Counted from the stretch's first letter, positions 7,578-63,781 are shown. The stretch is 64,000 nucleotides of DNA from Lachnospiraceae bacterium (GCA_045627305.1 JAZQNM010000037.1:16962-80961), one strand, 5' to 3'. Numbers and translations are program-made. The notes: generated by a model not told the origin, from the sequence alone.

Positions 7578-7606
7578 TTGACATTCACTTTCTTGTATTG
7601 TAGTAT
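7578..7606 (+). promoter_or_regulatory. Putative sigma-A promoter of the T-box leader
   Basis: TTGACA, 17-nt spacer, TAGTAT. Confidence 0.6.
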
Positions 7607-7628
7607 TTGATTCAGTTATAAATAAAAT

Positions 7629-7885
7629 GCTATGAAGAGGAATAGTATCGGATGGTCCGGTTTCAGAAAGCTGTCGGTTGATGCGAGACAGTCGAGGAGC
7701 ATTGGAGAACTCGCCTTGGAGCAGCGGCTTGAAGACCGTAAGGTTGTGTAGATGCCGCCGGAAGCCCGCCGTTATTTGGGAAGAGCATCGAATGATTTCT
7801 GTGCTTATTGAGTGCATGTTTATCATGAAGTAGAGTGGTACCACGTTAATAACGCCTCTATTCCTTAGGGAATAGAGGATTTTTG
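7629..7885 (+). promoter_or_regulatory. T-box riboswitch leader, predicted Leu (CUC) specifier
   Basis: Stem I spans 7629-7725. It has a K-turn base (GCUAUGAAGAGG / CCUUGGAGCAGC), AGUA (7644-7647) and GAGAA S-turn elements, CUC at 7710-7712 followed by purine G and a 4-bp lower helix, an AG bay CAGAAAG (7664-7670), and a distal loop (7671-7691). The T-box sequence AAGUAGAGUGGUACCACG is at 7828-7845. The terminator CCTCTATTCC-TTAG-GGAATAGAGG plus T-run is at 7855-7885, and its 5' strand overlaps the antiterminator 3' strand. Confidence 0.85.
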
Positions 7886-7901
7886 TATGATGGAGGATAA
7901 T

Positions 7902-10424
7902 ATGAAAATCAGTTTTTCCACACTGGGATGTCCCGATTATTCTTGGACCGATATTTATACCATGGCTAAAGACCTTGGTTATCATGGCATTGAGATTCGT
8001 GGACTTGGAGAGAAAATCAGTGCATATAAGGCTAAGCCTTTTGCGGATGAGAACATTGATGCGACAGCAGCCAAACTGCGTGAAATCGGTCTTGAGATTT
8101 CCTGCTTTTCATCCGGATGCCCTTTGAAGTATGCGGATCGTCTTGAACGTTCCATAGAAGAACTTACTGCCTATGCGAAATTGGCAAATAAGCTTGGAAC
8201 CTGTTATATTCGTATTCTTGCGGACGAGAATCCTAAGCCCGAGGGCGATGTTTCGGACGAACAGATTATTGCCGCATTAAAGAGACTTGAACCTGTTGCC
8301 GAAGAATACAATGTTACGATGTGCGTGGAAACAAACGGAGTATATTCCGATACCAAACGTTTGAGAAAGGTTTTGGATGCAGTTGGGAACCGTAAGATTG
8401 CTGCGCTTTGGGATATTCATCATCCTTATCGTAACTGTGGCGAAACTCCGGAAGAAACCGTTTCCAATCTCGGAGAATATATCAAATATGTTCATGTTAA
8501 GGATTCTCTTGTTAAGGATGGGATGGTTTCCTATCAGATGATGGGATATGGAGATATGCCGATTAAAGAGGCTTTTGCTGCTCTTGAGAGCATACATTAT
8601 ACCGGATATGTTTCTCTTGAGTGGGTAAAACGCTGGAGCCGTGAACTTGCGGATGCATGGGTAGTATTCCCGCAGTTTGCCAATTATATGGCTCCTTATA
8701 AGACAAAGCATAAGAATCCGTTGCAAACTGACCAGAGAGGAACGGGAAATTACATCTGGCCGAAGAATCATTTGATTCCTTATACATTCCCGGATATTTT
8801 GGACCGTATCTGCGAGGTATTTCCGACACAGTATGCTTTCCGTTATACCGAACTGGATTATACAAGAACCTATCCGGAATTTCGTGATGATGTCGACAAT
8901 TTTGCACGTGCGCTGATTGCACTTGGCGTGAATAAGGGTGACCATGTGGCAATCTGGGCTACCAATATTCCCGCGTGGTATATTACCTTCTGGGCTACGA
9001 CGAAGATTGGTGCCGTTTTAGTTACGGTTAATACTGCGTATAAGATTCATGAGATTGAGTATCTGCTCCGTCAGTCCGATACCCATACGCTCGTTATGAT
9101 TGACCAGTATAAGGACAGCAATTATGTGGAGATTATGAAAGAAATCTGTCCGGAACTGGAAACCTGTGAGCCCGGTAAATTGAATGCACAGCGTCTTCCT
9201 TTCTTAAAGAATATCATAAATGTTGAAAGCAAACAGAATGGATGTTTTACATGGGATGAGGCTATTGAACTCGGGACTTCCGTTCCTGTAACTGAAGTTG
9301 AGAACCGTCGTAAGCTTGTTGATAAGGATGATGTATGCAATATGCAGTATACCTCCGGAACCACAGGTTTTCCGAAGGGTGTTATGCTCACACATTACAA
9401 TGTAGTCAATAACGGAAAGGCAATCGGAGACTGTATGGACCTTTCAACCGCAGATCGTATGATGATTCAGGTTCCGATGTTCCATTGTTTTGGTATGGTA
9501 CTTGCGATGACCGCTTCCATGACGCATGGTGTTACGATGAGCCCAATTCCTGCATTTTCCCCGAGAAAAGGCTTGAAGTGCATCAATCAGGAGAAGATTA
9601 CATGTTTCCATGGTGTTCCGACTATGTTTATCGCAATGCTGGGACACGAGGATTTCGATAAGACAGATTTCTCCCATATGCGTACCGGTATTATGGCGGG
9701 AAGTCCTTGCCCGATAAAGGCTATGCAGGATGTTATTGAGAAAATGCATATGCCGGAGATTTGTATTACATATGGTCAGACTGAGGCTTCACCTGCAACT
9801 ACAATGAGTAAGACAACCGATTCCATCGAAACACGTGTCAATACGGTTGGTGGTCCCATTTACGGTGTGGATTGTAAGATTGTCGATCCTGAGACAGGAG
9901 CTGATCTTCCGGACAATGTAGATGGTGAATTTGTTGCACGTGGCTACAATATTATGAAGGGCTATTATAAGATGCCTGAGGCTACTGCTGCAGCAATTGA
10001 CGAGAAGGGGTGGCTGCATACCGGAGATTTGGCACGCAGACTTCCGGACGGTAATTTCAAGATTACAGGTCGAATCAAGGATATGATTATTCGCGGAGGC
10101 GAGAATATTTACCCTAAGGAAATAGAAGACTTCCTGTATTCCTATCCGAAGGTAAATGATGTACAGGTTATCGGTGTGCCGGATAAGGATTACGGCGAGG
10201 AGATAATGGCTTGCATCATATTGAAACAAGGCGAAGAGGCCACAGAGGATGAAATAAAGCAGTATGTACGTGATCACATGGCTAAGCATAAGGTGCCGAG
10301 ATATGTTGATTTTGTTGATTCATTCCCGATGAATGCTGCCGGAAAGATTCTGAAATACAAGATGCGTGAAGAGGCTGTGGAGCGTCATAGTCTTCAGCAG
10401 GCTAATAGGATTGAAACTGCCTGA
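7902..10424 (+). CDS. Fusion protein: xylose-isomerase-like TIM barrel (N) plus AMP-dependent acyl-CoA synthetase/ligase (C)
   Basis: Residues ~1-275 (MKISFSTLGCPDY..GYHGIEIRG..VHVKD..SLEW) look like a sugar-phosphate isomerase/epimerase TIM barrel. Residues ~330-840 carry AMP-binding motifs (YTSGTTGFPKGVMLTH, GYGQTE-like ITYGQTE, GWLHTGD, RIKDMIIRGGENIYP, GKILK). The ATG at 7902 follows GGAGGA. Confidence 0.85.
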   Translation: MKISFSTLGCPDYSWTDIYTMAKDLGYHGIEIRGLGEKISAYKAKPFADENIDATAAKLREIGLEISCFSSGCPLKYADRLERSIEELTAYAKLANKLGTCYIRILADENPKPEGDVSDEQIIAALKRLEPVAEEYNVTMCVETNGVYSDTKRLRKVLDAVGNRKIAALWDIHHPYRNCGETPEETVSNLGEYIKYVHVKDSLVKDGMVSYQMMGYGDMPIKEAFAALESIHYTGYVSLEWVKRWSRELADAWVVFPQFANYMAPYKTKHKNPLQTDQRGTGNYIWPKNHLIPYTFPDILDRICEVFPTQYAFRYTELDYTRTYPEFRDDVDNFARALIALGVNKGDHVAIWATNIPAWYITFWATTKIGAVLVTVNTAYKIHEIEYLLRQSDTHTLVMIDQYKDSNYVEIMKEICPELETCEPGKLNAQRLPFLKNIINVESKQNGCFTWDEAIELGTSVPVTEVENRRKLVDKDDVCNMQYTSGTTGFPKGVMLTHYNVVNNGKAIGDCMDLSTADRMMIQVPMFHCFGMVLAMTASMTHGVTMSPIPAFSPRKGLKCINQEKITCFHGVPTMFIAMLGHEDFDKTDFSHMRTGIMAGSPCPIKAMQDVIEKMHMPEICITYGQTEASPATTMSKTTDSIETRVNTVGGPIYGVDCKIVDPETGADLPDNVDGEFVARGYNIMKGYYKMPEATAAAIDEKGWLHTGDLARRLPDGNFKITGRIKDMIIRGGENIYPKEIEDFLYSYPKVNDVQVIGVPDKDYGEEIMACIILKQGEEATEDEIKQYVRDHMAKHKVPRYVDFVDSFPMNAAGKILKYKMREEAVERHSLQQANRIETA

Positions 10425-10502
10425 TTGCGTCCAATTTAATGTTGACAATTCGGGTTATCTGTTGTAATATATGAAAGCGGTTGTGAAAACCGCAACATAT
10501 AT

Positions 10503-10575
10503 AGGGGTATAGTTCAGCTGGTAGAATAACGGTCTCCAAAACCGCAGGTCGTGGGTTCGAATCCTACTGCCCCTG
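10503..10575 (+). tRNA. trnW: tRNA-Trp (CCA anticodon)
   Basis: Cloverleaf by eye: acceptor AGGGGTA/TGCCCCT, anticodon loop CU-CCA-AA, T-arm GTGGG-TTCGAAT-CCTAC, discriminator G. 3' CCA is not encoded. Confidence 0.9.
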
Positions 10576-10587
10576 GCATTATAAATG

Positions 10588-10621
10588 CACTTCCGTCTAC
10601 CGATGGGAGTGTATTTTTTTG
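10588..10621 (+). terminator. Intrinsic terminator after tRNA-Trp
   Basis: CACTTCC...GGGAGTG stem followed by a T-run. Confidence 0.75.
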
Positions 10622-19142: not shown

Positions 19143-19368
19143 AAAGAAAATGATTCCTGGGGTGTGCGACAACTCCTGTATTTTTGAACCTACAACTTTT
19201 AAAAGGGATTCCTATATCGGTAAGTGGATGTCAGGCCTCCTTCGAGTGGAAGGCAGTAAGCTTACTTGCGGTCACCCACCTAGCTTGTGCTAGGAGTCAA
19301 GAAACAGGAAACGGCATTCTGGGAATTATGTGTGTATACCATACTTCGCAGTTTTGCGGAGTTTTTTT
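19143..19368 (+). ncRNA. Candidate structured small RNA (~225 nt, 6S-like rod architecture), identity unconfirmed
   Basis: It is bounded by the promoter above and the terminator CTTCGC-AGTTTT-GCGGAG plus T7 (19344-19368). The 5' arm 19153-19187 pairs with the 3' arm 19297-19326 (ATTCC/GGAAT, TCCTGT/ACAGGA, TTTTTGA/TCAAGAA). There is an internal bubble with the perfect hairpin CCTAGC-TTGT-GCTAGG (19279-19294) and an apical stem around 19218-19270. No ORF with an RBS is present. Confidence 0.5.
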
Positions 19369-43773: not shown

Positions 43774-44985
43774 TTACATTATAGCTTCAAGTCTTTCACG
43801 AATCGCTTTTATGAAATCGGAAGAATTTACTGCGGTTGCTGAGTATTCAGCAGAAACCAGACCGGCAAGGTCTTTCGTCATAATACCGTCGTTCAACGTT
43901 TTCAGAACTGCGGCTTCCAAATTGTCTGCATATTTCACAAGATCCTGAAGACCATCCTTCTCACCACGTTTACGGAATGCACCGGACCATGCGAAGATGG
44001 TAGCTACAGGGTTCGTAGAGGTTTCCTCACCCTTTAAGTAACGATAGTAATGACGTGTTACGGTTCCGTGCGCAGCCTCGTACTCATAGTTCCCGTCCGG
44101 GCTTACGAGAACACTGGTCATCATGGCAAGAGAACCGAAAGCGGTGCTGACCATATCACTCATAACGTCTCCGTCGTAGTTCTTGCAGGCCCAGATAAAT
44201 CCGCCTTTGGAACGGATAACACGGGCTACGGCATCATCAATCAGTGTGTAGAAGTAAGTAATGCCTGCTTCTTCAAAACGGGACTTGTATTCGTTATCGT
44301 AAAGTTCCTGGAAGACATCCTTGAAACGATGGTCGTATTTCTTGGAAATGGTATCCTTTGTGGAGAACCAGAGATCCTGCTTTACGGAAAGTGCATACTC
44401 GAAGCAGCTTCTTGCGTAGGACTCGATAGAAGAGTCTTTGTTGTACATGCCCTGCAGAACACCGGGACATTCGAAATCATAAATTGTCTCACGCATCTGT
44501 GTGCCATCCTCACCGGAGAACAGAAGTTCAGCCTTACCGGGGCAAGGAATGCGGAATTCGGTATTCTTATAAACGTCACCATAGGCATGTCTGGCAATCG
44601 TAATCGGCTTCTCCCATGTGCGAACGTTAGGTTTGATGGATTCAATCATGATGGGAGCACGGAACACGGTACCGTCGAGAATGGCACGAATCGTTCCGTT
44701 GGGACTTTTCCACATCTTAGAAAGTTTGTATTCCTCAACACGCTGTGCATTCGGGGTAATGGTTGCACATTTGACTGCAACACCATATTTCTTTGCTGCA
44801 TAGCTTGCATCTAATGTAACCTGGTCCTTCGTACGCTCACGCTCCGGAAGACCGAGATCAAAGTACTCGGATTTTAAATCAACAAAAGGAAGAATCAGTT
44901 CATCTTTAATCATCTTCCAAAGGATTCGGGTCATCTCATCGCCATCCATCTCAACGAGAGGAGTGGTCATCTGAATTTTAGCCAT
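43774..44985 (-). CDS. icd: NADP-dependent isocitrate dehydrogenase (eukaryote-like homodimeric type)
   Basis: 403 aa with VEMDGDEMTRI.W, TITPN, GTVFR, NYDGDV.SD and EAAHGTVTRHY motifs. Confidence 0.9.
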   Translation of the reverse strand: MAKIQMTTPLVEMDGDEMTRILWKMIKDELILPFVDLKSEYFDLGLPERERTKDQVTLDASYAAKKYGVAVKCATITPNAQRVEEYKLSKMWKSPNGTIRAILDGTVFRAPIMIESIKPNVRTWEKPITIARHAYGDVYKNTEFRIPCPGKAELLFSGEDGTQMRETIYDFECPGVLQGMYNKDSSIESYARSCFEYALSVKQDLWFSTKDTISKKYDHRFKDVFQELYDNEYKSRFEEAGITYFYTLIDDAVARVIRSKGGFIWACKNYDGDVMSDMVSTAFGSLAMMTSVLVSPDGNYEYEAAHGTVTRHYYRYLKGEETSTNPVATIFAWSGAFRKRGEKDGLQDLVKYADNLEAAVLKTLNDGIMTKDLAGLVSAEYSATAVNSSDFIKAIRERLEAIM

Positions 44986-45020: not shown

Positions 45021-47264
45021 TTACTGCTTGTTCTGTTCTGCGTAGTAGTTAATCAGGCAACCGTCGAGGATGATTGTCTTTTCGTCGTTGGTAAGACCTT
45101 TGACATAAAGCTTAATCTCATCGATGGAACCGTCCGCCTTCAAAACCTTGGCAAGGAATTCTTCCTGACCATTCTTGATGCCTTCGCGAACGTTCGGAAC
45201 GAATACGTAATCGCCTTCACTGTAAGGGAATTCAGCACCCTCTGGAAGGGTGAACGGAAGAATACCCCAGTTGATGCAGTTACTTCTGTAACGCTTGGTG
45301 GCATATTCGTAGCAGATATTTGCATAACCGCCGAGAACCTTCTGGCATGATGCGGCCTGCTCACGTGCTGAACCGTCACCGGGCTTATTGGCAAACACGC
45401 AGGAACCATACTGCGTGTTCTTAAGTAATTCGCCTGCATTACCGAAGTTCGAAAGTACCTTTACGAGTTCCTCCGGAGCTTTGCCGTCTCTTCTTTCCAA
45501 ATCCAGTGCATGAATTGCCTTGCTGCGGCCTACGTATTCGGGAACACGGCGGGAAAGGGCAAATTCGGAAAGACGAAGTGGATTGGAACGATAGGAACTT
45601 GTCTCACCGGAAGGAATCAGCTCATCGGTTGTCGTAACCGGATCACGGATTACTGCAGCAAGCTTAACAAGAAGGTTGTCGGTAAGTGCTTCCATCTTAG
45701 GCCAGTCGGTAATGTTCGGTCCGAGAATCAACTCGGCATCCTTATCGGCCTTGCCGTAGCCGTAGTAGAGACGGTTACGATATACAGACTTATCAAAATG
45801 ATACTCATGTGCGGGTACTTCATAATCAATATCGGTTGCAGCGGTAATGACACCACCGTTTGCTGCGGTTGCAGCTATGCTTCTGGCATCCATCAGTGCT
45901 ACGCCGCAAAGCTGACCGTCACTCGGTTTACTTCCTTCACGGTTCGGGAAGTTTCTCGTTGTATGACGAAGAGAAAGACCGTCATTGGCAGGAACGTCTC
46001 CGGCACCGAAGCAGGGACCACAGAAGGAAGGCTTAATAACGGCACCGGCCTTCAAAAGCTCAGCGGTCGCACCAACCTTGGTAAGTTCCAAACTAACCGG
46101 AACACTTGTCGGATATACGTTCAAAGAGAAATAACCGTTGCCGCAGCTCTTATCCTTCAAAATGGAAGCGGCTTCATCGATGTTGTCGAAAAGACCGCCT
46201 GCACAGCCTGCGATTACACCCTGATCGGCGTAAACCTTTCCGTCCTTAACCTTATCGGTGAGATGATAGGTAACACCCTTGAACTTTGTTGCAGCTTCCT
46301 TCTCGACGGACTCGAGAATCTCCTTCGCATTTGCCACGAACTCATGAATGGTGTAAGCGTTAGAAGGATGGAAGGGAAGAGCAATCATGGACTCAGCCTT
46401 ATCAAGATCAAGTTCGATGAAACGGTCATAGTAAGCACCATTCTTGGGCTCAAGTCTCTTATAGCACTCTGCACGCTCGTGTGTCTTATAGAAACCTTCG
46501 GTAATCTCATCGGTTTCCCAGATGGAACTCAGGCAGGTCGTCTCGGTTGTCATAACGTCGATACCGTTACGGAAATCAATCGGAAGATTCTTGATGCCGG
46601 GTCCTACGAACTCGAGTACACGGTTCTTTACAAAACCGTTGGCAAACGTTGCCTTTACCAAAGAAAGAGCGATGTCATGAGGTCCGATACCGCGCTTCGG
46701 CTTGCCGGTAACATAAACAAGAACAACCTCAGGCATATCAAGATCCCATGTGTTCTTAAGAAGCTGTTTTACAAGCTCGGGACCGCCTTCGCCGACACCC
46801 ATGGTACCAAGCGCACCATAACGGGTATGGGAATCAGAGCCGAGAATCATATTGCCGCATTGTGCAAGTTCTTCACGTGCATAAGAGTGGATGACACTCT
46901 GATTGGCAGGTACGTAGATACCGCCGAATTTCTTCGCTGCGGAAAGACCGAATACATGGTCATCCTCGTTGATGGTGCCGCCAACAGCACATAAAGAGTT
47001 GTGGCAGTTCGTCATCGCATAGGGAAGCGGAAACTCGGTAAGTCCGCTGGCACGTGCGGTCTGGATGATGCCGACATAAGTGATGTCGTGGCTGACCATG
47101 GCGTCAAACTTTATTTTTAATTTGTCCGGATTGCCGGAAGTGTTGTGAGCATTCAAAATAGAATAAGCGATTGTATTCTTGCGTGCTTCTGCAGGACTTA
47201 GGTTACAGTCCGTAACCGGTACACCATTATTCAGAAATACACCGCCTTCGTGCAATGTAATCAT
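45021..47264 (-). CDS. acn: Aconitate hydratase (~750-aa mitochondrial-like type)
   Basis: Fe-S ligand contexts (GSDSHT, CGPCFG, C..C) and a swivel domain at the C-terminus. The ATG at 47264 is preceded by AGGAGA. The longer ORF-track start lies upstream of the predicted promoter and TSS, so it cannot be used. Confidence 0.88.
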   Translation of the reverse strand: MITLHEGGVFLNNGVPVTDCNLSPAEARKNTIAYSILNAHNTSGNPDKLKIKFDAMVSHDITYVGIIQTARASGLTEFPLPYAMTNCHNSLCAVGGTINEDDHVFGLSAAKKFGGIYVPANQSVIHSYAREELAQCGNMILGSDSHTRYGALGTMGVGEGGPELVKQLLKNTWDLDMPEVVLVYVTGKPKRGIGPHDIALSLVKATFANGFVKNRVLEFVGPGIKNLPIDFRNGIDVMTTETTCLSSIWETDEITEGFYKTHERAECYKRLEPKNGAYYDRFIELDLDKAESMIALPFHPSNAYTIHEFVANAKEILESVEKEAATKFKGVTYHLTDKVKDGKVYADQGVIAGCAGGLFDNIDEAASILKDKSCGNGYFSLNVYPTSVPVSLELTKVGATAELLKAGAVIKPSFCGPCFGAGDVPANDGLSLRHTTRNFPNREGSKPSDGQLCGVALMDARSIAATAANGGVITAATDIDYEVPAHEYHFDKSVYRNRLYYGYGKADKDAELILGPNITDWPKMEALTDNLLVKLAAVIRDPVTTTDELIPSGETSSYRSNPLRLSEFALSRRVPEYVGRSKAIHALDLERRDGKAPEELVKVLSNFGNAGELLKNTQYGSCVFANKPGDGSAREQAASCQKVLGGYANICYEYATKRYRSNCINWGILPFTLPEGAEFPYSEGDYVFVPNVREGIKNGQEEFLAKVLKADGSIDEIKLYVKGLTNDEKTIILDGCLINYYAEQNKQ

Positions 47265-47307
47265 AGGAAATCTCCTTACTGTTCTTATTTTTTCGCATAC
47301 ATAATTT

Positions 47308-47336
47308 ATTATAGAAAATTCGGCTGTTTCTGTCAA
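47308..47336 (-). promoter_or_regulatory. Perfect-consensus sigma-A promoter of acn-icd
   Basis: On the minus strand: TTGACA, 17-nt spacer, TATAAT. Confidence 0.75.
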
Positions 47337-47489
47337 TATGTGCGGGAGACCGGATGGCATTTTTCGGAAACTTCTTTTATTGTATTTTGCAGTTGGATAC
47401 TAAGTCTTTTCTGTTCTTGTGCATAACATATAAATATATGGCAAACTTTCTCTGTTTTTAACAATTTTTTGTGAATTTGAAAAAAGAAA

Positions 47490-57953: not shown

Positions 57954-58511
57954 TTATTCCGTTGCCATATTTCGGATTCGTTCCAGTGCCTGTTTTACAG
58001 GTGGGAGTGCAAGAATGACAAGTGTGATAGCCATTTCAATCAACAGATACAGATAATTGTAGAATATCGGGTATAGTGCAACTATCTTGAATTTTTTTAT
58101 AAACTCTTCCGGAACATAGTCCATATAGAAGAGATAGCCGCCGAGTGTATGAAAGGCACCGCGGAACAAAACACCAATAATATATCCGACAATCATTCCT
58201 TTGTAACCTTTTTTATGGAAGAAGCCTGCAAGTCCAAGAGCGGTAAATGCAAGAAAATAGTCACAGCACAACTGTAACAAATTCAGAATATAAGCGCCCT
58301 GCCAGAATTGCAAAAGGCCGTATATGGCTCCGCAAATCAGTCCGGCAGTTGGACCGAAACAATAGCCGGCATAGCAGATAAAAAACATACTGCAAAGTGT
58401 GACAGAACCCGAATAGGGAAGAGAGAAGATACGTACATAGGAAAGGGCAAAGGCGAGCGCAATACATACGCCACAGCATACGAGTTCCTTTGCTGACATC
58501 ATTTTTTTCAT
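57954..58511 (-). CDS. thiT: Thiamine transporter S-component (ThiT/YuaJ-like)
   Basis: 185-aa protein with 6 TM helices and W/G-rich loops. It sits directly behind a TPP riboswitch. Confidence 0.75.
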   Translation of the reverse strand: MKKMMSAKELVCCGVCIALAFALSYVRIFSLPYSGSVTLCSMFFICYAGYCFGPTAGLICGAIYGLLQFWQGAYILNLLQLCCDYFLAFTALGLAGFFHKKGYKGMIVGYIIGVLFRGAFHTLGGYLFYMDYVPEEFIKKFKIVALYPIFYNYLYLLIEMAITLVILALPPVKQALERIRNMATE

Positions 58512-58514
58512 AAA

Positions 58515-58655
58515 AAAACCTCCTGCAATGAATGCCGGAGGGTGCTTGTGCGGAACGAATTCCGTTGCTTCCTTACACCGGTACTAACCGGATCAAGTAA
58601 TGAGGGTTTCCGAGAATAACTCGGCTCTCAGCGCGATATGCACCCCTAGCAGATA
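58515..58655 (-). promoter_or_regulatory. TPP (THI-box) riboswitch
   Basis: The minus-strand read is CTAGGGGTGC..CTGAGA..ACCCTCATTACTTGATCCGGTTAGTACCGGTGTAAGGAAG, matching the THI element core. The downstream helix CCTCCGG...GGAGG plus T7 can terminate transcription and mask the SD. Confidence 0.88.
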
Positions 58656-58669
58656 TAGTATTTGCCTTC

Positions 58670-61348: not shown

Positions 61349-63781
61349 ATGGGCATTTATGATTACAAGGCCATCGAAGGCAAATGGCAGAAATATTGGG
61401 AAGAAAACCAGACCTTTAAAACGGATGTATGGGATTTTTCCAAGCCTAAATATTATGTTTTGGATATGTTTCCTTATCCGTCAGGCGTAGGTCTTCACGC
61501 AGGACATCCGGAAGGGTATACCGCTACGGATATTATGTCTCGAATGAAGAGAATGCAGGGCTTTAATGTCCTTCATCCGATGGGCTATGATTCCTTTGGT
61601 CTTCCGGCAGAGCAGTATGCTGTAACAACGGGAAATCATCCGAATGGCTTTACTCAGGAGAATATTAAAACCTTCAGTAAACAGCTTCGTGAGTTAGGCT
61701 TTGACTATGACTGGACCAAATTGATTGCGACATCTGACCCAAAATTCTATAAGTGGACGCAGTGGATTTTCAAGCAGCTTTATCTGGATGGATATGCTAA
61801 ATATATTGATATGCCGGTCAACTGGTGTGAAGAACTCGGTACTGTTCTCAGTAACGATGAGGTTATTGATGGTAAGAGTGAGAGAGGCGGATACCCTGTT
61901 GTTCGTAAGAATATGAAACAGTGGGTTATTGACCAGCCTGCATTTGCCGAGAAGCTTCTTGAGGGTCTTGAGGAGATTGATTGGCCTGAATCCACAAAAC
62001 TGATGCAGAAGAACTGGATCGGTAAGTCTACCGGTGTTGAGGTGGAATTTGAGATTGTCGGTGGTGGAAAGTTCAGCATCTTCACGACCTGTATCGAAAC
62101 CATCTACGGTATTACCTTTATGGTTCTTGCTCCCGACGGAGAGATTGTAAATACTTTGATGCCTCGTATTGAAAACAAGGCTGAGGTTGAGGCTTATATT
62201 GCCGAGACACTTAAGAAGAATGATATGGACCGTACCGAACTGAACAAGACGAAGTCCGGCTGCGAACTGAAGGGCGTTACCTGTATCAACCCGGTAAATG
62301 GTAAGGAAGTTCGTATGTTCATCGGCGATTTCGTTCTGGCAAACTACGGTACCGGTGCTGTTATGGCTGTTCCTTCTCACGATCAGCGTGACTTTGAATA
62401 TGCGATTGCACATAATATTGATATGATTCAGGTTATCGACGGTGATGAGAAGCTTGGTCATGTTGATGTCAGCGAGAAGGCATTTGAGAAGTATGATTAT
62501 CTCGGTAAGGGCTATAAGCTGATTAATTCTGAAGAATTTACCGGTCTTACAGTAGAAGAGGCTAAAGAGGCCATTACCTGTAAGCTTGAAAAACTTGGAG
62601 TAGCAAAGAGAACCGTAAATTATCATTTCCGTGAATGGATTTTTGCCCGTCAGCGTTACTGGGGTGAGCCTGTTCCGGTTGTTCACACTGAGGATGGTAT
62701 TTATACGCTTCCTGATGAGGAACTTCCGCTTGTATTGCCTGAACTTGAGGATTACAAGGGTAAGAATGGTAAGGCTCCTTTGGAGAATGCTACAGAGTGG
62801 AAACAGTATAATCAGAATGGCGTAAAGGGACTTCGTGAGACTTCCACAATGCCAGGCTCCGCTGGTTCTTCATGGTATTTCCTTCGTTATATCGATCCTC
62901 AGAATGAGGACGAATTTGCGAATCAGGAGCTTTTGAAACATTGGATGCCGGTTGACCTTTACATTGGAGGACCGGAGCATGCAGTTGGTCATCTGATGTA
63001 TTCGAGAATCTGGAACCGTTATCTTTATGATAAGGGACTTGCACCGACGAAGGAACCTTTTAAGAAGCTTGTTCATCAGGGTATGATTCTTGGTTCCAAT
63101 GGTATCAAGATGGGTAAGCGATTCCCTGAATACGTTGTGAATCCGAGCGATATCATTCGTGATTACGGTGCTGACACCTTGAGACTTTATGAGATGTTTA
63201 TGGGACCGCTTGAGGTCAGCAAACCTTGGAGCAATACCGGTGTTGAGGGTGCCAAGAAATTCCTGAACCGTGTATGGGCTTTCTTTACTGAGTCTGCAAA
63301 CATTAACGATAATGCGAAGAAGGACCTTGAGAAGGTATATCATCAGACTGTTAAGAAGGTTACGTCCGATTTTGAGCAGCTTGGTTTCAATACCGCTATC
63401 AGCCAGATGATGATTTTCGTTAATGCATGTTATAAGGCAGGCAGTTGTCCTAAGGAGTATGCAGAAGGACTGATTAAGATGCTTTCCTGCATCTGCCCGC
63501 ATATTGGTGAAGAAATCTGGAGTATTCTCGGACATGACAATACCATTGCATATGAGCCTTGGCCTGTTTATGATGAAGAGAAGACAAAGGATGACATGAT
63601 TGAGATTGCTGTACAGGTAAATGGCAAGGTACGTGCAAAGGTACTTGTTACTCCCGAAGAGGAACAGGATACGGTTATGGCTAAGGTTATGGAAAGTGAT
63701 GCAGCCAAATTTATCAACGGATTTACCATCGTAAAGCAGATTTATGTAAAGGGTAAGATTTTCAATATTGTTGTTAAATAG
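61349..63781 (+). CDS. leuS: Leucine--tRNA ligase
   Basis: HAGH (HIGH-type) in PYPSGVGLHAGHPEGY, CP1 editing domain, KMGKR (KMSKS-type). 810 aa. Confidence 0.95.
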   Translation: MGIYDYKAIEGKWQKYWEENQTFKTDVWDFSKPKYYVLDMFPYPSGVGLHAGHPEGYTATDIMSRMKRMQGFNVLHPMGYDSFGLPAEQYAVTTGNHPNGFTQENIKTFSKQLRELGFDYDWTKLIATSDPKFYKWTQWIFKQLYLDGYAKYIDMPVNWCEELGTVLSNDEVIDGKSERGGYPVVRKNMKQWVIDQPAFAEKLLEGLEEIDWPESTKLMQKNWIGKSTGVEVEFEIVGGGKFSIFTTCIETIYGITFMVLAPDGEIVNTLMPRIENKAEVEAYIAETLKKNDMDRTELNKTKSGCELKGVTCINPVNGKEVRMFIGDFVLANYGTGAVMAVPSHDQRDFEYAIAHNIDMIQVIDGDEKLGHVDVSEKAFEKYDYLGKGYKLINSEEFTGLTVEEAKEAITCKLEKLGVAKRTVNYHFREWIFARQRYWGEPVPVVHTEDGIYTLPDEELPLVLPELEDYKGKNGKAPLENATEWKQYNQNGVKGLRETSTMPGSAGSSWYFLRYIDPQNEDEFANQELLKHWMPVDLYIGGPEHAVGHLMYSRIWNRYLYDKGLAPTKEPFKKLVHQGMILGSNGIKMGKRFPEYVVNPSDIIRDYGADTLRLYEMFMGPLEVSKPWSNTGVEGAKKFLNRVWAFFTESANINDNAKKDLEKVYHQTVKKVTSDFEQLGFNTAISQMMIFVNACYKAGSCPKEYAEGLIKMLSCICPHIGEEIWSILGHDNTIAYEPWPVYDEEKTKDDMIEIAVQVNGKVRAKVLVTPEEEQDTVMAKVMESDAAKFINGFTIVKQIYVKGKIFNIVVK

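Follow-up and report, generated by a model that had tools for sequence, protein, structure and literature searches.

T-box leader RNAs with a leucine specifier are known from the leuS gene and the ilv-leu operon of Bacillus subtilis, and the targets known for T-boxes are aminoacyl-tRNA synthetases, known biosynthetic enzymes or transporters. The stretch of Lachnospiraceae bacterium DNA analysed here (GCA_045627305.1, JAZQNM010000037.1:16962-80961; 64,000 nucleotides, hereafter the window, with positions counted from its first letter) carries a Leu T-box of the same architecture and presumed mechanism, running from a kink-turn (K-turn) Stem I to a competing antiterminator and terminator. Unlike the known targets, the gene behind this leader encodes an acyl-CoA synthetase (ACS) fused to a TIM-barrel metalloenzyme, the two being paired as neighbouring genes in other loci. 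No T-box-controlled acyl-CoA ligase was found in a literature search of incomplete coverage that took in the TBDB paper and a survey of T-box regulons, which agrees with the first-pass annotation of this DNA, whose author was not aware of any described acyl-CoA ligase under a Leu T-box.

The ligase part of the protein is most like the PRK12583/ACSF2-like fatty-acid CoA ligases of the ANL superfamily, with the adenylation and thioester motifs all present, and differs from these in its N-terminal TIM barrel (or adjacent TIM-barrel gene) and in its T-box control. For the barrel itself the best PDB match is AsbF, a 3-dehydroshikimate dehydratase (E-value 1.5e-4, structural similarity score TM 0.75). 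AsbF and AsbC of petrobactin synthesis provide a precedent in which a xylose-isomerase-like barrel makes the acid for an ANL enzyme, AsbC being aryl-acid adenylating, and the product of AsbF is adenylated in that pathway. However, the identity to AsbF is only 20%, and the ACS of the window resembles fatty-acyl and not aryl-acid ligases. Unlike in the petrobactin system, there are no carrier protein or siderophore genes near the fusion, and leucine control would be senseless for petrobactin.

Two further systems are close in function. Isovalerate carboxylation in the rumen (Allison and colleagues) concerns the same habitat and the same organisms, the fusion being present in Ruminococcus flavefaciens; it differs from the situation described here in that no oxidoreductase partner lies in the neighbourhoods of the fusion and in that the R. 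flavefaciens orthologues lack a T-box. The literature search, again of incomplete coverage, turned up no isovalerate-activating gene from rumen bacteria. To our knowledge, the isovalerate-activating enzyme which the carboxylation route needs has not been assigned to any gene. The other system is the methylbutyryl-CoA synthetase MbcS of Staphylococcus aureus, an AMP-forming enzyme which activates external short branched-chain acids and is a functional analogue of the activity proposed below (PMC10026030). Compared by function and not by sequence, MbcS differs in preferring 2-methylbutyrate and isobutyrate, in being poor on isovalerate and in feeding lipids (PMC10026030); it has no TIM partner, and no T-box has been reported for it.

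The leucine T-box leader and the fusion gene behind it

A cmscan search matched the window at 7623-7862 (+ strand) to the T-box family RF00230 with 106.3 bits (E-value 1.8e-22), exceeding the Rfam gathering score of 93 bits and aligning to model positions 1-219, which is the full model. As Stem II, the IIA/B region and Stem III are all present, the leader is a full-length T-box and not a short one of the glyQS type. The features of the leader and its gene are as follows.

7578-7606, + strand: promoter-like site TTGACA-17 nt-TAGTAT (consensus scan, 10/12 matches)
7623-7862, + strand: T-box leader RF00230, full length, with Stem I, Stem II, IIA/B region, Stem III and antiterminator (cmscan)
7629-7722, + strand: Stem I, with GA/K-turn base, 4-bp helix GAGG/CCUU, specifier loop (AGUA ... 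GAGAA) and distal region (cmscan structure line, sequence)
7710-7712, + strand: specifier CUC (Leu), next to it the purine G7713 (column in the cmscan alignment)
7829-7862, + strand: antiterminator, a weak helix of 7829-7835 with 7856-7862 that encloses the T-box bulge (RNAfold)
7830-7845, + strand: conserved T-box sequence GUAGAGUGGUACCACG (sequence, cmscan alignment)
7855-7884, + strand: intrinsic terminator, 10-bp stem, UUAG loop, A and UUUUU (terminator scan, RNAfold)
7892-7896, + strand: Shine-Dalgarno sequence GGAGG, 5 nt before the ATG at 7902 (sequence)
7902-10424, + strand: TIM barrel::ACS fusion of 840 aa, stop at 10424 (open reading frame (ORF), translation, Pfam, full-length orthologues)
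7902-8711, + strand: xylose-isomerase-like TIM-barrel domain, residues 1 to about 270 (Pfam PF01261, AlphaFold2 (AF2) model, Foldseek)
8709-8765, + strand: inter-domain linker, residues 270-288, disordered (pLDDT <50 in the AF2 model; the NCBIfam alignment of the ACS begins at residue 291)
8772-10424, + strand: adenylate-forming ACS domain, residues 291-840 (Pfam, NCBIfam, motifs)

In the cmscan alignment GAGG at 7637-7640 and CCUU at 7714-7717 form the basal helix, and CCUU is preceded by GAGAA-CUC-G, which makes up the 3′ side of the specifier loop. Among Leu specifiers CUC is the most frequent, with 74% of the Leu T-boxes in TBDB (PMC7778990). Further downstream, AGUGGUACCACG at 7834-7845 represents the T-box sequence carrying the UGGN bulge, which in this leader is UGGU (7836-7839) and pairs with the ACCA 3′ end of the tRNA. 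There is no tRNA-Leu within the window; the related contig L172 encodes a tRNA-Leu(UAA) with A73 and CCA, consistent with the UGGU bulge, though A73 is found in most tRNAs. The GAG isoacceptor was not seen.

The terminator hairpin has the sequence CCUCUAUUCC-UUAG-GGAAUAGAGG (7855-7878), followed by A and by UUUUU at 7880-7884, and is predicted by RNAfold to be very stable (-19.3 kcal/mol, z -3.6; 0 of 200 shuffles equally stable). The antiterminator on its own reaches -5.5 kcal/mol, which is not better than shuffles; such weakness is expected, as this helix requires the tRNA to stabilize it. The 3′ strand of the antiterminator (7856-7862) sits within the 5′ arm of the terminator, and this overlap together with the two energies fits the classical arrangement of a T-box switch. 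The promoter-like site is positioned 17 nt upstream of the Rfam match and is thus compatible with the start of the leader, but consensus matches of this kind were equally frequent in shuffled sequence, which makes the site weak evidence alone.

These results bear out the first-pass annotation in its description of the RNA. It had proposed a Leu T-box with all hallmarks, and the score, the specifier loop and the T-box bulge with antiterminator and terminator were each found in the leader when tested. It had also read CUC and a purine G above the GAGG/CCUU helix, the codon which the covariance alignment places there, a UGGU bulge predicting a tRNA with A73, and a terminator 5′ strand overlapping the antiterminator 3′ strand, which share 7856-7862.

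The regulated gene has its start codon at 7902, in line with orthologues that begin at an equivalent MK(I/V)xFST. It had been described as encoding a TIM barrel joined to a complete adenylate-forming ligase, and Pfam supports this with the domains AP_endonuc_2, AMP-binding and AMP-binding_C. The first of these (PF01261) spans residues 22-245 (2.4e-30; 106.5 bits against a gathering score of 31.1). The metal ligands of the barrel (E143, D171, H198, E240) show at least 94% conservation among 241 homologs, fused as well as stand-alone. An AF2 model of residues 1-290 has a pLDDT of 92 for the TIM domain, with strands and helices in alternation, and Foldseek relates it with probability 1.0 to members of the xylose isomerase-like family, its top matches being AsbF, IolI and ketose 3-epimerases (TM 0.7-0.75, identity 20% or less). 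Assignment of the domain to a characterized subfamily (FrlC, IolO, Hyi, AsbF and others) was rejected, the best NCBIfam model scoring 37 bits against a cut-off of 305. A PDB sequence search gave no assignment either, with matches at E-value 1.5e-4 or worse that are distant and functionally mixed.

The ACS domain comprises AMP-binding (residues 302-689, 2.5e-91) and AMP-binding_C (residues 740-815, 7.8e-20). It possesses all of the ANL core motifs scored (A3 P-loop, A5 YGxTE, A7 TGD, A8 hinge and A10 Lys), in the form of YTSGTTGFPKG, YGQTE, HTGD, GRIKDMIIRGGENIYP and a C-terminal AAGK lysine. Among the NCBIfam models it fits PRK12583 "fatty acid CoA ligase" (NF009233) best, with 692.1 bits over residues 291-829; as this is below the curated cut-off of 832, PRK12583 is the closest family, yet the protein is no member of it by the NCBI rule. 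Of the solved structures, those of fatty-acyl, feruloyl and malonyl-CoA synthetases come closest (E-values of about 1e-77 to 1e-64). Motif A5 reads YGQTE, and its glycine presumably occupies the place of the acetate-gating Trp of acetyl-CoA synthetases (W414 of Acs). This rule, which is given low weight, would suggest a substrate larger than acetate.

Spread of the module and its operon companions

The fusion is widespread, relatives having been found in at least 590 GTDB species genomes when its distribution, raised as a matter for survey in the first-pass annotation, was followed up. Genomic comparison used the 80 best orthologues, which are full length with 70-90% identity and come from rumen and gut or hindgut Oscillospirales (Oscillospiraceae, Ruminococcus and metagenome-assembled genomes labelled "Lachnospiraceae"); cultured carriers among these are R. 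flavefaciens 007c (L025) and Ruminococcaceae KHP2 (L050). A T-box motif, searched for as AGUGGUACC[AG]CG and present in all T-box-positive orthologous leaders, lies directly upstream of the fusion in 28 of the 80. In the column aligned to CUC of the window, these 28 leaders have CUC in 26 cases and CUG in two, with cmscan confirming CUG-G in L065 and L074 and CUC in L035.

A second set of 80 loci was obtained from metagenomes by a scan with an unfused ACS of 559 aa and consists of 52 unfused and 28 fused loci. The T-box is directly upstream of the ACS gene in 15 of the 52 unfused loci, and accompanies 15 of the 28 fused ones (seven directly upstream, eight by way of a LeuA-like first gene). 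The specifiers are CUC, with the exceptions of CUG in L161 and CUU in L106. No non-Leu specifier (Ile, Val or other) was found among about 57 readable leaders, and the expectation that the specifier would stay Leu in orthologues thus holds, more than 50 leaders being all CUN. Rfam confirms 23 of the orthologous leaders at 94-142 bits. In L015, L019, L022 and L106 the motif is present with a score under the Rfam gathering threshold, and these are counted as probable and not as confirmed. The motif-bearing leader lies about 225 nt upstream of 5897 in L015 and of 5867 in L019; both leaders have CUC in the specifier column and are enlarged in the Stem II region by insertions of 40-90 nt. Altogether, about 60 strongly diverged leaders have retained the T-box together with an intact terminator and a Leu specifier. 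In orthologues without a T-box, no other Rfam element was detected by cmscan of 18 such loci, R. flavefaciens 007c having a plain spacer of 230 nt upstream of the fusion.

The barrel and the ligase also occur apart. Clostridia have many stand-alone TIM-barrel homologs, which are about 270 aa long and show 33-60% identity. One of these, in L082, is a free gene after an unfused ACS of 559 aa which is 56% identical to the ligase domain of the window, while the other stand-alone contexts among L081-L086 gave no clue and lacked a T-box. A TIM gene is found downstream of the ACS in about 24 of the 52 unfused loci, mostly directly adjacent and one gene apart in L090 and L091, the order ACS to TIM being the reverse of that within the fusion. 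T-box-controlled ACS genes with no adjacent TIM gene are those of L098, L102, L104, L106, L140, L144 and L154. The occurrence of the fusion in many species, together with the adjacency of ACS and TIM genes elsewhere, identifies the two as one module; comparison of these loci shows that they are a conserved two-enzyme pair, either fused or neighboring, in which the barrel is a conserved partner and no accident. By the same comparison, the Leu T-box tracks the ACS, fused or not, in all three arrangements found.

Clustering of ORFs over the 80 genomic loci gave no recurrent protein-coding neighbor of the fusion. The module has companions in some loci, however, whose genes are located as follows.

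LeuA-like genes (proteins P0390-P0509): L156 794-2170; L136 720-2138; L167, L169, L171, L172 and L173 7001 to about 8389
Amidohydro_2 genes, 259-286 aa, HxH intact: L048 8545-9336; L087 4770-5570; L088 3562-4341; L089 3237-4028; L100 2058-2918
Met genes metY/metA, after Amidohydro_2: L167 11712-14263; L169 11733-14029; L171 11672-13892; L172 11671-13891; L156 5469-7659
Homocysteine S-methyltransferase-domain genes, 160 nt after the unfused ACS: L102 4013-5398; L104 4804-6132

In L140 the first gene behind the T-box is the ACS, and leuS begins 32 nt after it. The leader of this locus (2631-2928 of contig Ga0334898_1000004) has a peculiarity of its own: a complete tRNA-Ala(GGC) with encoded CCA at 2801-2875, which stands in for Stem III, with the IIA/B region before it and the antiterminator after it, in the leader ahead of ACS-leuS. 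Processing of this tRNA-Ala would cut the Leu T-box leader.

A more elaborate arrangement is an operon of five genes in which a T-box (CUC) is followed by a LeuA-like gene, TIM::ACS, Amidohydro_2, metY and metA. It is present in 12 full-length loci (eight from the metagenome set and four of four looked up), with L168 and L170 being partial copies on short contigs. Gaps between its genes are mostly 0-30 nt, reaching about 90 nt before metA in L169, and L167 has an extra ORF of 73 aa before metA.

The LeuA-like gene was the first gene of a Leu T-box operon holding TIM::ACS in every context examined. Its products form a widespread family of proteins of 455-463 aa, are labelled hypothetical by PGAP, and share the HMGL-like and LeuA_dimer domains with LeuA. 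They differ from LeuA in being far below the cut-offs for isopropylmalate synthase, a function that was considered and rejected (275 bits against 532, with the catalytic motifs lost). Among 121 members, [M/S/A/R]-C-[D/E/S/N] stands where HxH would be expected and RDGEQ varies or is missing, whereas the C-terminal regulatory domain is best conserved, with a mean top-residue frequency of 0.86 compared to 0.70 elsewhere. The LeuA-like protein is probably a leucine sensor derived from LeuA and not a synthase. Presumably coupled to the fusion at the level of translation in some lineages, such a pseudo-enzyme would probably add allosteric leucine feedback.

The Amidohydro_2 protein has the uncharacterized Bordetella protein BB4693 as best PDB match, and no NCBIfam model matches it. 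Both metY and metA of the Leu-controlled operon pass their NCBIfam cut-offs, and no S-adenosylmethionine riboswitch was found between the Leu-controlled genes and the downstream Met genes, nor a riboswitch of any kind between the ACS and the Met gene of L102 and L104. Other structured RNAs seen in these loci are a cobalamin riboswitch in L161 (4744-4933), about 100 nt past the stop codon of the fusion and ahead of the next ORF, and a "drum" RNA (RF02958) in L172 (4899-5011).

Proposed mechanism and competing explanations

From the anatomy of the leader and established T-box biology, the fusion gene of the window is almost certainly controlled by standard T-box transcription antitermination through uncharged tRNA-Leu. 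With tRNA-Leu charged, the 10-bp terminator would form and transcription would end at about 7884. Uncharged tRNA-Leu(GAG) would pair by its anticodon with CUC in Stem I and by its free ACCA end with UGGU, thereby stabilizing the weak antiterminator, and polymerase would proceed into the fusion gene.

In earlier surveys the specifier of a T-box always agreed with the function of the regulated gene (PMC2494555), and on these grounds the module should raise the supply of leucine, doing so under leucine starvation. The ACS would then catalyze the ATP-dependent activation of a carboxylic acid with the leucine skeleton, most plausibly isovalerate. A separately encoded 2-oxoacid:ferredoxin oxidoreductase would convert isovaleryl-CoA to 2-oxoisocaproate by reductive carboxylation, and transamination would yield leucine. 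Isovaleryl-CoA might in addition serve as a primer for iso-odd fatty acids, whereby leucine would be spared. That the ligase activates isovalerate, and that reductive carboxylation then leads to leucine, was the working hypothesis of the first-pass annotation and is still the best guess as to its function, with a probability of roughly 0.4. It fits with the Leu T-box following the ACS even where this is unfused, with the T-box-ACS-leuS operon and with the presence of the gene in R. flavefaciens. Isovalerate is abundant in the rumen and gut. Its incorporation into leucine by ruminococci was reported by Allison et al. (1962, 1966), as cited in PMC7356843.

A number of observations weigh against isovalerate as the substrate. 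About two-thirds of the orthologues lack the T-box, including all of the R. flavefaciens loci. A 2-oxoacid:ferredoxin oxidoreductase is not a recurrent neighbor in about 170 loci, and none was present among the roughly 30 ORFs of the window scanned with Pfam, a scan which took in about two-thirds of the long ORFs, the others lying mostly between 40.9 and 61.3 kb. The PRK12583 family is without a defined specificity and the ACS falls below its cut-off; MbcS, the closest characterized branched-acid ligase, handles isovalerate poorly (PMC10026030). Simple activation of isovalerate requires no barrel, yet the TIM barrel, its metal ligands intact, is an obligatory partner. An Amidohydro_2 gene often follows the module, and the Met genes downstream of Leu-controlled genes in two lineages are unaccounted for by this model.

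In the main alternative, suggested by the obligatory partnership and the intact metal site, barrel and ligase would act in sequence on one metabolite of a leucine-specific pathway, the substrate not being free isovalerate. In such a scheme, which is possible though doubtful, the barrel would isomerize, epimerize or dehydrate a keto compound into the acid used by the ACS, as in AsbF/AsbC, with Amidohydro_2 adding a hydrolase, hydratase or decarboxylase step in some lineages. This is consistent with the fused or adjacent state of ACS and TIM across hundreds of species and in both gene orders, with the conservation of the metal ligands and with AsbF being the best PDB match by structure as well as by sequence. 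The recurrence of Amidohydro_2 beside the fused and the unfused module points the same way, as does the LeuA-derived regulator in the operon, which suggests a committed, feedback-controlled step. However, no candidate substrate can be named, and the barrel is at most 20% identical to any solved enzyme, its neighbors in fold space spanning many reactions. Furthermore, stand-alone TIM homologs are often without a neighboring ACS, and the T-box-controlled ACS genes with no adjacent TIM gene listed above also speak against this scheme.

Activation of isovalerate or another branched acid may alternatively serve to spare leucine and not to make it; external branched acids would be turned into acyl-CoA primers for iso-branched fatty acids when leucine is scarce. 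Ruminococci are said, in the series of studies by Allison, to use branched volatile acids for lipids besides amino acids. S. aureus MbcS, which draws on external acids to feed the synthesis of branched-chain fatty acids, sets a precedent (PMC10026030). This explanation is nevertheless unlikely, in that T-boxes normally control genes which raise the supply of charged tRNA (PMC2494555), that lipid priming predicts Ile and Val specifiers too, where all of the approximately 57 readable ones are Leu, and that co-transcription with leuS and with the LeuA-derived sensor points to leucine supply.

It is very improbable that the ACS re-activates acetate or another small acid for nearby CoA-dependent steps such as LeuA-type condensation or acylation by MetA. 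LeuA-like and MetA genes are indeed found in the fusion operon, in which MetY releases acetate, but the LeuA-like protein is without catalytic residues and most loci have neither neighbor. The glycine at the place presumed for the acetate-gating Trp and the match of the ACS to fatty and medium-chain ligases, not to Acs, also disagree with it, and fermentative Clostridia are not short of acetyl-CoA. That the T-box is an evolutionary leftover, for instance a captured leuS leader whose leucine control is functionally meaningless, can practically be dismissed: the ACS of L140 lies between a Leu T-box and leuS as though inserted, and most orthologues do without the element, yet it has been kept with terminators and Leu specifiers in the diverged leaders and in three gene arrangements, and in the window it serves the fusion alone while leuS has none.

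Taken together with its companions, ACS and TIM may tentatively be seen as the core of a leucine-dedicated supply pathway in anaerobic Clostridia, extended by Amidohydro_2 in some lineages. The pathway would be controlled at two levels, by the Leu T-box and by a LeuA-derived pseudo-enzyme of which only the leucine-sensing domain is left. The barrel would make or process the metabolite activated by the ligase, in a chemistry that exceeds the mere activation of isovalerate, and the whole would be either the genetic basis of the isovalerate-to-leucine route or a new branch bypassing part of the isopropylmalate pathway.

Surroundings in the window and significance

The genes around the fusion in the window are housekeeping ones, with clpC, radA and a carboxypeptidase upstream and tRNA-Trp, DUF3048 and tgt downstream, and the T-box unit is monocistronic. 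The first-pass annotation had taken the fusion as the only gene that the leader can regulate. It is the sole coding gene behind the leader, and to that extent the statement stands; it is too strict with regard to the tRNA gene that follows:

10502-10577, + strand: tRNA-Trp(CCA) (ARAGORN, Rfam)

The terminator scan detected no terminator between the stop codon of the fusion and this tRNA gene, the next being at 10583-10616, and transcriptional read-through to tRNA-Trp could therefore occur. The tRNA gene also has a promoter-like site of its own at 10442-10470. Its synteny with the fusion is limited to the three closest relatives (L001, L043 and L070), which places it outside the conserved module.

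The leuS gene of the window (61349-63781) is without a T-box and starts 50 nt past the preceding ORF. There is no further RF00230 match in the 64 kb, the leader of the ligase fusion being the only Leu sensor seen there, and neither a LeuA-like gene nor Amidohydro_2 is present in the window. A 403-aa protein of the isocitrate/isopropylmalate dehydrogenase family (43774-44985, - strand) adjoins a 779-aa protein of the aconitase family (45021-47360, - strand); judged by size, this pair more likely belongs to the isocitrate branch than represents leuB/leuCD. The window also has a tmRNA (1395-1747) with the tag peptide ADNNLAFAA, a 6S RNA (19151-19329) and a thiamine pyrophosphate riboswitch (58553-58657, - strand), which is placed as the leader of ORF 57954-58511 (- strand).

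The RNA described here is an ordinary member of RF00230 and the T-box itself will not surprise specialists; what is new is its target and context, a conserved enzyme module, and the conserved association of Leu-only T-boxes with an uncharacterized ligase-barrel pair. As the T-box specifier is a reliable guide to function, the Leu specifier marks this ACS/TIM pair, which no fewer than 590 species genomes of Clostridia from gut and rumen possess, as one of leucine supply. The degenerate LeuA paralogue would exemplify an enzyme reduced to an allosteric sensor. Should the chemistry of the pair differ from isovalerate activation, it would represent a new leucine pathway. If the ligase does activate isovalerate, its gene would be that for a step of the isovalerate-carboxylation route, known since the rumen physiology of the 1960s and of importance for ruminococci that degrade fiber, for the use of isoacids as feed supplements and for the cross-feeding of gut bacteria with branched-chain acids, and a physiological pathway 60 years old would become testable at the level of the gene.

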